NCBI RefSeq assembly: GCF_030384885.1 | Contig: NZ_CP128613.1 | Source of the DNA: Escherichia coli | GTDB lineage: Bacteria; Pseudomonadota; Gammaproteobacteria; Enterobacterales; Enterobacteriaceae | Strand: one strand, 5' to 3' | DNA: 64,000 nt | Part shown: in pieces, positions 2,300 to 5,965 of the stretch | Layout: the number at the start of each line of letters is the position of its first letter | How positions within the stretch are numbered: position 1 is the stretch's first letter | The notes under the pieces: model-generated | The model's database searches: none | Told to the model about the DNA's origin: nothing | The model's input: only the letters and a program-made list of their open reading frames with translations | Translations under genes and position numbers: made by a program

Positions 2300-3967
2300 G
2301 TGGCTCAATTCGTTTATACCATGCATCGTGTCGGCAAAGTTGTTCCGCCGAAACGTCATATTTTGAAAAACATCTCTCTGAGTTTCTTCCCTGGGGCAAA
2401 AATTGGTGTCCTGGGTCTGAACGGCGCGGGTAAGTCTACCCTGCTGCGCATTATGGCGGGCATTGATAAAGACATCGAAGGTGAAGCGCGTCCGCAGCCA
2501 GACATCAAGATTGGTTACCTGCCGCAGGAACCTCAGCTGAACCCGGAACACACCGTGCGTGAGTCCATTGAAGAAGCGGTTTCTGAAGTGGTTAACGCTC
2601 TGAAACGTCTGGATGAAGTGTATGCGCTGTACGCCGATCCGGATGCCGATTTTGACAAGCTGGCCGCTGAACAAGGCCGTCTGGAAGAGATCATTCAGGC
2701 TCATGACGGTCATAACCTGAACGTTCAGCTGGAGCGTGCGGCGGATGCGCTGCGTCTGCCGGACTGGGACGCGAAAATCGCTAACCTTTCCGGTGGTGAG
2801 CGTCGTCGCGTGGCATTGTGCCGCCTGCTGTTGGAAAAACCAGACATGCTGCTGCTCGACGAACCGACCAACCACCTGGATGCCGAATCCGTAGCGTGGC
2901 TGGAACGCTTCCTGCACGACTTCGAGGGCACCGTGGTGGCGATTACCCACGACCGTTACTTCCTCGATAACGTTGCAGGCTGGATCCTCGAACTTGACCG
3001 CGGTGAAGGTATTCCGTGGGAAGGTAACTACTCCTCCTGGCTGGAGCAGAAAGATCAGCGTCTGGCGCAGGAAGCTTCACAAGAAGCAGCGCGTCGTAAG
3101 TCGATCGAGAAAGAGCTGGAGTGGGTACGTCAGGGAACTAAAGGCCGTCAGTCGAAAGGTAAAGCACGTCTGGCGCGCTTTGAAGAGCTGAACAGCACCG
3201 AATATCAGAAACGTAACGAAACCAACGAACTGTTTATTCCACCTGGACCGCGTCTGGGCGATAAAGTGCTGGAAGTCAGCAACCTGCGTAAATCTTACGG
3301 CGATCGTCTGCTGATTGATGATCTGAGCTTCTCGATCCCTAAAGGGGCGATCGTCGGGATCATCGGTCCGAACGGCGCGGGTAAATCAACCCTGTTCCGT
3401 ATGATCTCTGGTCAGGAACAGCCAGACAGCGGCACCATCACTTTAGGTGAAACGGTGAAACTGGCATCTGTCGATCAGTTCCGTGACTCAATGGATAACA
3501 GCAAAACCGTTTGGGAAGAAGTTTCCGGCGGGCTGGATATCATGAAGATCGGTAACACCGAGATGCCAAGCCGCGCCTACGTTGGCCGCTTTAACTTTAA
3601 AGGGGTTGATCAGGGTAAACGCGTTGGCGAACTCTCCGGTGGTGAGCGTGGTCGTCTGCATCTGGCGAAGCTGCTGCAGGTTGGCGGCAACATGCTGCTG
3701 CTCGACGAACCGACCAACGACCTGGATATCGAAACCCTGCGTGCGCTGGAAAACGCCCTGCTGGAGTTCCCGGGCTGCGCGATGGTTATCTCGCACGACC
3801 GTTGGTTCCTCGACCGTATCGCCACACACATTCTGGATTACCAGGATGAAGGTAAAGTTGAGTTCTTTGAAGGTAACTTTACCGAGTACGAAGAGTACAA
3901 GAAACGCACGCTGGGCGCAGACGCGCTGGAGCCGAAGCGTATCAAGTACAAGCGTATTGCGAAGTAA
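2300..3967 (+). CDS. ettA: Energy-dependent translational throttle EttA (ABC-F ATPase)
   Basis: 555-aa ORF with two ABC cassettes (two Walker A GxxGAGKST motifs, two LSGGE signatures). Confidence 0.95.
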   Translation: MAQFVYTMHRVGKVVPPKRHILKNISLSFFPGAKIGVLGLNGAGKSTLLRIMAGIDKDIEGEARPQPDIKIGYLPQEPQLNPEHTVRESIEEAVSEVVNALKRLDEVYALYADPDADFDKLAAEQGRLEEIIQAHDGHNLNVQLERAADALRLPDWDAKIANLSGGERRRVALCRLLLEKPDMLLLDEPTNHLDAESVAWLERFLHDFEGTVVAITHDRYFLDNVAGWILELDRGEGIPWEGNYSSWLEQKDQRLAQEASQEAARRKSIEKELEWVRQGTKGRQSKGKARLARFEELNSTEYQKRNETNELFIPPGPRLGDKVLEVSNLRKSYGDRLLIDDLSFSIPKGAIVGIIGPNGAGKSTLFRMISGQEQPDSGTITLGETVKLASVDQFRDSMDNSKTVWEEVSGGLDIMKIGNTEMPSRAYVGRFNFKGVDQGKRVGELSGGERGRLHLAKLLQVGGNMLLLDEPTNDLDIETLRALENALLEFPGCAMVISHDRWFLDRIATHILDYQDEGKVEFFEGNFTEYEEYKKRTLGADALEPKRIKYKRIAK

Positions 3968-3978
3968 TGCGTAAAATG

Positions 3979-4008
3979 CCGGATGCGGCGCGCCAGCATC
4001 GCATCCGG
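3979..4008. repeat. REP-like GC-rich hairpin downstream of ettA
   Basis: Inverted repeat CCGGATGCG...CGCATCCGG immediately after the ettA stop codon. Confidence 0.4.
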
Positions 4009-4022
4009 TAATAGTTAAATGA

Positions 4023-4319
4023 TTAATGGGAGGCAAGTTCCCGGAAAAAGGCAGGATTTTCTTTAATTGTGGCAAGTACTTTTGCAGCCAATCCCGTAGG
4101 ATTTCTTCGCTTCGATTCCCAGCTTTTAATGGTATCCACACTGGTTCCCAGAGCTTTTGCCATCTCACTTTGCGAAACGTTGAGTTGCTCACGAATAGCT
4201 TTAACATCCGCAATTTCGTAGCGGGTCACCCGTGCAGGTTCTTTTAAACCTTGTTTAATCTCGACAGCCTCTTCCAGAGAGGTTTTCAACTCATCAAAAA
4301 AACTCATTTTATACCTCAC
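4023..4319 (-). CDS. HTH (XRE-like) antitoxin of a type II toxin-antitoxin pair, HigA-like
   Basis: 98-aa ORF with a C-terminal helix-turn-helix (...SQSEMAKALGTSVDTIKSWESKRR...); lies directly downstream of, and overlaps, the toxin ORF. Confidence 0.65.
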   Translation of the reverse strand: MRYKMSFFDELKTSLEEAVEIKQGLKEPARVTRYEIADVKAIREQLNVSQSEMAKALGTSVDTIKSWESKRRNPTGLAAKVLATIKENPAFFRELASH

Positions 4320-4641
4320 CTTTGAGCAGTTTCGTCAACTTCTTTAGTTGAGCTTTTTCCGTATCTGTCAGACTGTCTTTGGCATTCTTCGGATAGGCCA
4401 TAATCAAATAAATAATCTCTTCCGTCGCCAGAAAGTAAATTATTCTGACACTGCCACTTTTTCCCTGTGAACCCGCAGCCATTCGGACTTTACGCAATCC
4501 ACCAGTCTGCTGAATGAGATCACCTTTATCGGGAGTTCCGATGAGTTCTTTTTGCAATTCCTTTAATTCATCATCGGTTGCAATCTGCTTGATCTGACGC
4601 GTAAACATTGGCGTCTCTATAAATATTATCGCCTTGCCCAT
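4309..4641 (-). CDS. RelE/ParE-superfamily toxin, HigB-2-like
   Basis: About 110 aa when started at MGKAIIF (the track ORF carries an N-terminal extension). Contains ...GGLRKVRMAAGSQGKSGSVRIIYF..., resembling the GKSGGxRxIY signature of HigB-2-type killer proteins. GGGAGGGG Shine-Dalgarno 4 nt upstream of the ATG. Toxin precedes antitoxin. Confidence 0.65.
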   Translation of the reverse strand: MGKAIIFIETPMFTRQIKQIATDDELKELQKELIGTPDKGDLIQQTGGLRKVRMAAGSQGKSGSVRIIYFLATEEIIYLIMAYPKNAKDSLTDTEKAQLKKLTKLLKGEV

Positions 4642-4732
4642 TACCCCTCCCTGGCAGGTACATTGTACACCAAAATGGAGTACTAAGTACACTTTTGAAT
4701 CAGTAATATCACTCAACATCTTATAAAGATGA

Positions 4733-5965
4733 TTATCCCTGCTCCCCCATCATCTCCCGCACCAGCTCCACGCAGCGCAGGAAACGGCTGTCGTAATCGT
4801 CTTCTTCAACCCGCACAAATTCGATATTGTTCTCTTCCAGCATCTCCACCAGCAAGTTCTGGAACTCTTTGCGATCCACCGAACTGCCGAGACTGCGTAA
4901 ACCATCCGCCACCCACGGCGTGTTGTTCTCCAGCAGAATCACCAGATCAAAACGGTATTCATCGATCAGCGCCTGTACGAACGGATGCTCGCGCCCTTCG
5001 TACTTTTTGCAGAACGCCTGAGTTGTCACAAAATCGGTGTCGATAAACGCCACTTTATTGGCATATTTTACTGCAAAATCAATATATTGAGCGTGTCCAA
5101 GCGCGATTTTATCGTAGTCGGAATACTGCAATGCAATCTCATCGCCGCCAAGATGCGAAAAGACATAATCGCGACCATATTCCCATGCACTGGTAGTGTT
5201 GAAGATATTGGCAAGTTTGTTTACCAGGGTGGATTTACCGCTCGATTCGCCGCCGAGGATCGCCACGGTGCGCACAAAGAACGGCTTCACTTCGGTGGGA
5301 ATATATTCCCAGTAGCGGAACGGGTTTTCGCGGATCTGCGCACCGCTGATACTCATAAAGGTGCGTTTCGGATCGACCAACACCGTTTCGATCCCCAGAT
5401 GTTCCATATACTGCGGCGCGTCGGCTTCTTCCGAGGTGTAGATCAGATCCGGCTGGATCCCTTTTTCAGCCATAAACTTTTTGATGCCGTTGCTCCACAC
5501 ATCCCAGCCATGCGGATACGGCTCCATGCCCTCTTCGTTGAAAGCATGAATGCGAATATTTTTCTGATATTTAAAAGTTTGCAATAACCAGCGCAGACGA
5601 TCCGGCACCGTGGGCTGCTGCGACATGGCGCTATCTTCGAACAACGCGCGGTCGCGGGTATCGTCAAAGCCCATAATGATATGCAGTTCGTCAACCTGAC
5701 TACAGGCACGCTGGATAAGGTAGATATGTCCGGTATGCAGCGGGTAAAACTTACCGAATACAACACCAATAGTTTTCTTCTGCCGGGGAAATTCAAGTCC
5801 CAAATAACGGTGCAACGCCTCCAGCTTTTGCGCGCTGGGGCTTTTAATTTTGGCATTCAGTAACTGGCTTAAATACCCTTTGGTCATACCGCTGGCATCA
5901 GCCACCTGCTGTAGCGTACAGCCCTGTTGCTTGATGGCAGTTTTCAGATAATCAAATGACGACAT
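4733..5965 (-). CDS. nadR: NadR: NAD regulator, NMN adenylyltransferase and ribosylnicotinamide kinase
   Basis: N-terminus MSSFDYLKTAIKQQG... with HTH, then nucleotidyltransferase and P-loop kinase domains; 410 aa from the internal Met. Confidence 0.93.
   Translation of the reverse strand: MSSFDYLKTAIKQQGCTLQQVADASGMTKGYLSQLLNAKIKSPSAQKLEALHRYLGLEFPRQKKTIGVVFGKFYPLHTGHIYLIQRACSQVDELHIIMGFDDTRDRALFEDSAMSQQPTVPDRLRWLLQTFKYQKNIRIHAFNEEGMEPYPHGWDVWSNGIKKFMAEKGIQPDLIYTSEEADAPQYMEHLGIETVLVDPKRTFMSISGAQIRENPFRYWEYIPTEVKPFFVRTVAILGGESSGKSTLVNKLANIFNTTSAWEYGRDYVFSHLGGDEIALQYSDYDKIALGHAQYIDFAVKYANKVAFIDTDFVTTQAFCKKYEGREHPFVQALIDEYRFDLVILLENNTPWVADGLRSLGSSVDRKEFQNLLVEMLEENNIEFVRVEEDDYDSRFLRCVELVREMMGEQG

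Follow-up and report, generated by a model that had tools for sequence, protein, structure and literature searches.

A probable HigB-2/NadS-type toxin-antitoxin operon between nadR and ettA of Escherichia coli, and its remnants in K-12

Here, we describe two adjoining minus-strand ORFs inside positions 4023-4732 of a 64-kb stretch of E. coli DNA (64,000 nucleotides, the window), located between ettA (2300-3967, plus strand) and nadR (4733-5965, minus strand). This placement, and the toxin-first gene order, had been proposed in a first-pass annotation made from the sequence alone; ORF and RefSeq coordinates confirm the former, and the position of the 110-aa ORF upstream of the gene for the helix-turn-helix (HTH) antitoxin confirms the latter. 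The toxin gene (4309-4641, minus strand) encodes a 110-aa protein (MGKAIIF...KGEV), a predicted ribosome-dependent mRNA endonuclease, and the antitoxin gene nadS (4023-4307, minus strand), which is convergent with ettA, encodes a 94-aa protein that begins MSFFDEL at an ATG at 4307. The context gene nadR, also on the minus strand, precedes the toxin gene, and 91 bp separate the nadR stop from the toxin start. A RefSeq E. coli genome with 100% identity in this region carries exactly the same two CDS (toxin, 110 aa; nadS, 285 nt), named 'type II toxin-antitoxin system RelE/ParE family toxin' and 'nadS: NadS family protein'. The toxin TAA (4311-4309) is followed by a single base and the nadS ATG, so that the genes are 1 nt apart and do not overlap. 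The overlapping 98-aa antitoxin of the first-pass annotation has to be given up, as the 98-aa frame with its GTG start is simply the longest ORF, and both the NadS profile (covered from 1 to 94 of 94 positions) and the RefSeq CDS fit the 94-aa protein that starts at the ATG.

Signals for translation are readily recognized in the sequence of both genes. The Shine-Dalgarno sequence of the toxin (GGGAGGGG, 4644-4651, minus strand) lies two bases before its ATG, and a Shine-Dalgarno-like GGTGAGG for nadS (4314-4320, minus strand) lies within the last toxin codons and is also kept before the K-12 remnant described below. The location of the nadS ribosome-binding site in the toxin end, together with the succession of stop codon, one base and ATG, suggests translational coupling of the two genes. 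Where ettA and nadS converge, a REP-like hairpin (CCGGATGCG / CGCATCCGG, 3979-4008) with a perfect 9-bp stem is the sole inverted repeat found in 3960-4740, and it is likely the 3' boundary of both the ettA and the nadS transcripts. A consensus promoter scan of 3900-4900 returned no minus-strand sigma-70 site upstream of the toxin, a terminator scan of the same interval returned none after nadR, and Rfam had no match in 3900-4800 at E <= 1. Transcription of the pair by read-through from nadR is possible.

Assignment of the toxin to the HigB-2 type is based on agreement between profile, sequence, fold and catalytic-residue evidence. Its top Pfam match is PF06296 (E = 5.9e-10), and a search of PDB sequences aligned residues 6-102 with HigB-2 of Vibrio cholerae (VcHigB2) at E = 7.5e-17; the earlier suggestion of a HigB-2/RelE-superfamily-like toxin is thus backed by profile and sequence searches. 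Of the accompanying description, a protein of about 110 aa with a GKSG-x-RIIY motif, the size stands, whereas the motif reads GKSGSVRIIY, with two residues between its halves. An AlphaFold (AF2) model built from 20 homologues (mean pLDDT 86) has the element order E-H-H-E-E-E-H and a RelE-like fold. In a Foldseek search of the PDB with this model, the top 11 matches were all HigB2 chains (TM 0.73-0.82), followed by YafQ and ParE structures at E of 0.01 or worse. Residues R53, R66, Y83 and K85 align with VcHigB2 R51, R64, Y82 and K84 and are invariant in all 20 sequences of an alignment that ranges from Enterobacterales to Halomonas and Vibrio. Exchange of Arg51, Arg64, Tyr82 and Lys84 of VcHigB2 for Ala lowers translation inhibition 170- to 3000-fold (PMC5416850), and PF06296 toxins are described as ribosome-dependent, mRNA-degrading enzymes encoded in toxin-then-antitoxin order (PMC11980606, Table 1). 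Membership of the toxin in the HigB-2/PF06296 family of the RelE/ParE superfamily, with a BECR fold, is therefore strongly supported. Toxin residues 14-96 also showed sub-threshold similarity to Crn1 (CRISPR ring nuclease) and CARF models (E 0.004-0.16; NCBIfam, PDB, PADLOC), which we set aside as probable noise from a common alpha/beta pattern.

The antitoxin matches the NCBIfam equivalog model NadS (NF041265) with 182.6 bits against a cut-off of 60, as compared to 47.7 bits for the YiaG-like model NF007481. Further matches were to TIGR03830 (E = 1.2e-9), to Pfam HTH_3 (E = 6e-10) and, weakly, to MqsA_antitoxin (PF15731, E = 6e-4), and residues 33-91 aligned with the HTH of HigA-2 (residues 43-101) at E = 2.2e-6 in a PDB search. 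In the AF2 model, a five-helix HTH domain occupies residues 35-92 at the C-terminus, in keeping with the C-terminal XRE-type HTH that the first-pass annotation had recognized. Residues 1-31 are modelled with pLDDT 43-51, as a helix (3-18) and a linker (18-31) below 50, and this N-terminal segment does not align with HigA-2. In V. cholerae HigA2 (VcHigA2), the N-terminus is disordered and becomes folded on the toxin, which residues 3-22 by themselves can neutralise (PMC5416850); the low-confidence N-terminus of the NadS model would be consistent with similar folding upon toxin binding. NadS has the HigA-2 architecture, and by analogy its N-terminal segment would also serve neutralisation. Within NadS, the segment TSVDTIKSWExKRRNPTGLAAKVL is nearly invariant across homologues, which fits a conserved DNA target.

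A candidate for this target lies in the 91-bp spacer between nadR and the toxin gene, which holds four GTAC motifs arranged as two GTAC-N3-GTAC palindromes (4658-4668 and 4680-4690). Extended to 17 bp, these form a proximal predicted operator O2 (GGTGTACAATGTACCTG, 4655-4671, minus strand) and, 22 bp upstream of it, a distal predicted operator O1 (AGTGTACTTAGTACTCC, 4677-4693, minus strand). The 64-kb window has no further GTAC-N3-GTAC site, and nowhere else in it do four GTAC occur within 40 bp. In other species, we surveyed 46 homologous loci over the 110 nt that precede the toxin start and found GTAC-N3-GTAC in 42 of them, 29-83 nt (mostly 29-53 nt) before the start codon. The motif occurs 48 times in these 5,060 upstream nt and five times in the other 317,521 nt of the same loci, an approximately 600-fold enrichment. 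With its flanks, the palindrome has the consensus GGTGTAC-wnT-GTACACC; the two-site layout recurs in homologous loci L004, L006, L010, L015 and L018, and in several loci the palindrome lies, as judged by eye, between recognisable TTGACx (-35) and TAnnnT (-10) hexamers. This conservation supports the prediction that both palindromes constitute a NadS autoregulatory operator, as the first-pass annotation had supposed for 4642-4732. The near-palindrome on which it had drawn, GTACTTAGTAC, does occur on the minus strand (4680-4690), but its TGTACA direct repeats are not, since exact TGTACA occurs once (4664-4669) and the repeating unit is GTAC, present four times. Three loci (L017, L019 and L050, from an Enterobacter MAG, Lelliottia and Pseudenterobacter) have no GTAC-N3-GTAC palindrome, a longer toxin-antitoxin gap (about 90 nt) and a common upstream sequence …CTCAGGGAAGAGT…, and may represent a sub-lineage with another operator.

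The DNA contacts known from V. cholerae are not simply transferable to NadS, because three of the four base-contacting residues differ: R68, E71 and N72 of VcHigA2 correspond to D58, K61 and S62 of NadS, while R77 is conserved as R67 (alignment against PMC11006873). VcHigA2 protects TGTACGC-N5-GCGTACA, from just after the -35 element to over the -10 (PMC11006873). The differing contacts, together with a spacer of 3 bp instead of 5 bp, indicate that the specificity of NadS is related to, but not identical with, that of VcHigA2.

Outside E. coli, toxin homologues with 60-82% identity are present in 57 other species, of genera including Serratia, Enterobacter, Xenorhabdus, Photorhabdus, Yersinia, Pectobacterium, Halomonas/Vreelandella and Thioalkalivibrio, and many of the contigs that bear them are 4-6 kb long. 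Of the 57 loci, 56 have NadS directly after the toxin, and the other one ends within the toxin. As nadR was near the pair in none of the 57, the name NadS reflects only the location in E. coli. In PLSDB, 889 plasmids carry family members, 453 of which are mobilisable. One of the family's E. coli plasmids, the 5.2-kb Col(Ye4449) MOBP plasmid pCP8-3-ColYe4449, encodes a toxin identical in 85 of 110 and a NadS identical in 79 of 94 residues; the pair adjoins mbeB/mbeD and is preceded by one GTAC-N3-GTAC site. The same plasmid (L070, 3645-4939) has a DUF4231 gene beside a TIR-domain gene, resembling an anti-phage cassette. Among phages, seven records contain distant homologues, all under 60% identity, and two PHROGs families of unknown function were matched. 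The spread over many Gammaproteobacteria and over mobilisable Col plasmids of ~5 kb characterizes the module as a mobile addiction-type cassette.

Within E. coli, the history of the pair was traced among 5,426 complete genomes. The toxin segment (4340-4725) is present in 673 of these (about 12%), always as one copy and always on the chromosome, and its carriers include UTI89, an ST131 strain and 'clone D i2'. Among sampled E. coli toxin alleles, 39 of 40 are annotated as intact CDS, with 97-100% identity. The HTH half of nadS was found in 729 genomes, which leaves about 56 with an orphan full-length antitoxin, e.g., strain 700462. Some portion of 3968-4732 was retained by 4,962 genomes, and 3,764 have the K-12-type 307-bp spacer at >=80% coverage. 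The intact pair is thus a lineage-wide allele and not the strain-specific insertion of the first-pass annotation, as comparison of the spacers revealed that K-12 and most E. coli retain remnants of both genes. Conservation of the pair itself in all E. coli including K-12, an observation that would have counted against that annotation, was likewise not found; only the remnants are widespread.

Of the toxin gene, the 307-bp nadR-ettA spacer of K-12 retains the final ~27 bp with the ribosome-binding site of nadS, joined to nadR 3 bp behind its stop codon. Next comes nadS, of which the first 38 codons are kept, and REP-derived sequence stands in place of the HTH domain, an enlarged REP cluster having overwritten the HTH half of the gene. 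RefSeq annotates this remnant as a 55-aa nadS (38 antitoxin codons plus a REP-derived tail) 33 bp behind the nadR stop, contrary to the absence of any K-12 gene between nadR and ettA that the first-pass annotation had supposed. In W3110 it is located at 2444-2611 of locus L001 and corresponds to window positions 4195-4337. The 55-aa nadS is without an EcoCyc entry, and first evidence of its expression came from PIRT-seq in 2025 (PMC12350097).

One and the same toxin-deletion junction is common to strain 700462, K-12, O157, BL21, O111:H8, O145 and B19429, and this shared junction, together with the remnants of both genes, identifies the K-12 state as a product of decay. The state of nadS differs among these lineages. 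The gene is intact in strain 700462, has its HTH half replaced by REP in the K-12 type, has lost its start codon and suffered a 1-nt deletion in BL21 and O111:H8, and shows a 10-bp deletion plus another downstream insertion in O145 and B19429; in R11 it is wholly absent from a spacer of 120 bp. Acquisition of the pair by the nadR-ettA spacer probably predates the split of the sampled E. coli lineages, and the simplest reading of the sequence comparison is a single insertion before the divergence of these lineages, a single deletion of the toxin and subsequent independent decay of the antitoxin. In B19429 (L062, 1-1345) and O145 RM8995 (L069, 1-534), SDR oxidoreductase, SRPBCC and DUF1471 genes lie across the nadS remnant from nadR, and this differing cargo marks the spacer as a recurrent site of gene gain and loss. 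Both genes are frameshifted in HS-02 (L063, 1034-1535; 81% identity to the window) beside a poly-A run, which looks more like a long-read assembly error than true decay.

The truncated NadS invites a further proposal, namely that the 55-aa fragment of K-12, O157 and similar strains might act as a chromosomal 'anti-addiction' peptide against HigB2-type toxins of Col plasmids. Its first 22 residues are identical to intact NadS, 18 of these 22 are identical to the N-terminus of the plasmid NadS, and its ribosome-binding site is kept. Such a role, which is argued by analogy to the neutralising residues 3-22 of VcHigA2, would nevertheless be quite unlikely, because the fragment is broken in several lineages, with its start codon or frame lost in BL21, O111:H8, O145 and B19429. 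Neutral decay is more likely.

With family membership, conserved catalytic residues, gene order and palindrome conservation observed as described above, the locus is very probably a chromosomal type II toxin-antitoxin operon of the HigB-2/NadS (PF06296 'relE-yiaG') kind. Its toxicity, neutralisation, DNA binding and promoter position would follow the example of the characterized relatives. Briefly, the 110-aa toxin would enter the ribosomal A site and cut translating mRNA by means of R53, R66, Y83 and K85. The 94-aa NadS would neutralise it through its N-terminal segment, which is expected to be disordered when free, and would dimerise via its C-terminal HTH domain to repress the operon. Repression would proceed by binding to the two 17-bp GGTGTAC-N3-GTACACC-type palindromes, which are located 13-29 and 35-51 bp before the toxin start codon.

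Two other views of the proteins themselves need to be weighed against this model. That the toxin is a ParE-type gyrase poison is suggested by the fold it has in common with ParE and by existing labels: RefSeq has 'RelE/ParE family', and PMC7232551, on the basis of the CDD ParE_toxin superfamily, calls the locus 'ParE-3'. Yet ParE structures are weak matches to the toxin model (E about 0.01-0.05, TM 0.53-0.58), exceeded by HigB2 structures by 7-8 orders of magnitude; the toxin has no match to Pfam ParE_toxin (PF05016), its best being PF06296, whose members are ribosome-dependent mRNases (PMC11980606), and it has kept every residue of the HigB2 RNase active site. A gyrase poison is thus very improbable on grounds of profile, fold and active site, and we rejected it. 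Alternatively, NadS could be a regulator of NAD metabolism that partners NadR, the upstream ORF being incidental. The gene indeed follows nadR in the same direction, with no terminator in between, and its K-12 remnant is reported to be expressed (PMC12350097). However, the NadS homologues of the 57 other species come after the toxin and never lie beside nadR, the conserved palindrome precedes the toxin gene and not NAD genes, and the K-12 remnant is without an HTH domain. We consider a NAD regulator barely credible and dismissed it, since the homologues are never beside nadR outside E. coli.

The HigB-2/NadS toxin-antitoxin model also leaves the biological role and the present activity of the pair to be considered. 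Instead of an addiction module or a selfish remnant, it may be an anti-phage abortive-infection or defence module, in which infection frees the toxin and translation is shut down; this is a matter of role and not of molecular mechanism, and is compatible with a toxin-antitoxin operon. A defence function of RelE/ParE-superfamily toxins has been discussed (PMC11980606), the nadR-ettA spacer is variable with other cargo in other strains, and the plasmid homologue adjoins the DUF4231 and TIR gene pair. On the other hand, a search of PADLOC-DB 2.0 with both proteins gave only generic HTH and weak CARF matches at E above 1e-5, the pair has no defence genes as neighbours in the window, and ~88% of complete E. 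coli genomes have lost the toxin, so that we give a defence role only a small chance. It is slightly less probable still that this strain carries the pair as an inactive relic, with an attenuated toxin and genes that persist only through being neutral. Chromosomal toxin-antitoxin copies are often attenuated, and this one is visibly decaying across E. coli. Against decay in this strain stand two full-length ORFs, intact toxin catalytic residues and NadS recognition helix, intact predicted operators and ribosome-binding sites, and the 39 of 40 sampled E. coli toxin alleles that are intact CDS with 97-100% identity. Judged by these sequence features, the pair in this strain is an intact and very probably functional HigB2/NadS operon.

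The pair is already known, in that it is annotated in RefSeq and published, and family, structure and mechanism are established. It was reported in 2020 as parE-3/yiaG-2 (TA30), a genomic islet in the nadR-ettA intergenic region said to be lacking from K-12 and HS (PMC7232551), and PF06296-YiaG modules have been described as a class (PMC11980606). Literature searches, made with the gene names, the adjacent genes and the accessions, brought up no functional work on the pair of E. coli. New here are the reassignment of the toxin from ParE-like to HigB2-type, the K-12 remnant with its decay series, and the conserved consensus of the predicted operator. The label 'ParE-3' and the statement that the genes are absent from K-12 are consequently due for correction in the literature. 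The locus also offers a clean natural series of toxin-antitoxin decay, from the intact pair via the orphan antitoxin and the truncated antitoxin to nothing, in which the toxin was lost first, as addiction logic predicts. GGTGTAC-N3-GTACACC, finally, provides a specific and testable operator consensus for NadS-family antitoxins.

Among known systems, HigB-HigA of Proteus vulgaris Rts1, the founding HigBA, is likewise toxin-first and combines a ribosome-dependent mRNase of the RelE superfamily with an HTH antitoxin. The canonical HigBA profiles (PF05015/PF09907 and HigA TIGR02607) matched neither protein in our Pfam and NCBIfam searches, and Rts1 HigB is structurally further from HigB2 than E. 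coli RelE is (PMC5416850). MqsR-MqsA of E. coli shares the toxin-first order and an antitoxin related at the HTH level, whereas MqsR belongs to another toxin family (PF15723). MqsA neutralises via an N-terminal zinc-binding domain and not a disordered peptide. Its operator resembles the one predicted here in being a short palindrome with a 3-bp spacer (AACCT-N3-AGGTT; PMC4894380).

V. cholerae HigB2-HigA2 (PDB 5JAA, 8A0X) agrees with the pair in toxin-first order, a PF06296 toxin, the four active-site residues and the fold, although toxin identity in the alignment is 38%. HigA2 and NadS both have a C-terminal XRE HTH and an N-terminal part that is disordered in HigA2 and of low confidence in the NadS model; these N-termini cannot be aligned, and the two antitoxins differ in three of four base-contacting residues. 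The operator of HigA2 (PMC11006873) and the one predicted for NadS are inverted repeats of TGTAC/GTACA, with arms 3 bp apart and two copies here, and arms 5 bp apart and one copy in V. cholerae. The class to which the pair belongs is that of the PF_RelE-YiaG ('relE yiaG') modules, which combine a PF06296 toxin with a YiaG/NadS-type HTH protein (Gerdes 2025, PMC11980606); the subfamily highlighted in that work has toxins with extended disordered N-termini, a feature that the present toxin (110 aa, aligned from residue 6) does not have. The 'parE-3/yiaG-2' (TA30) genes of AIEC NRG857c and UPEC CFT073 occupy the same locus and are of the same size as here, at 333 and 285 nt (PMC7232551); the toxin was there considered ParE-like and K-12 devoid of the genes, whereas here the toxin is HigB2-type and K-12 retains remnants of the pair.
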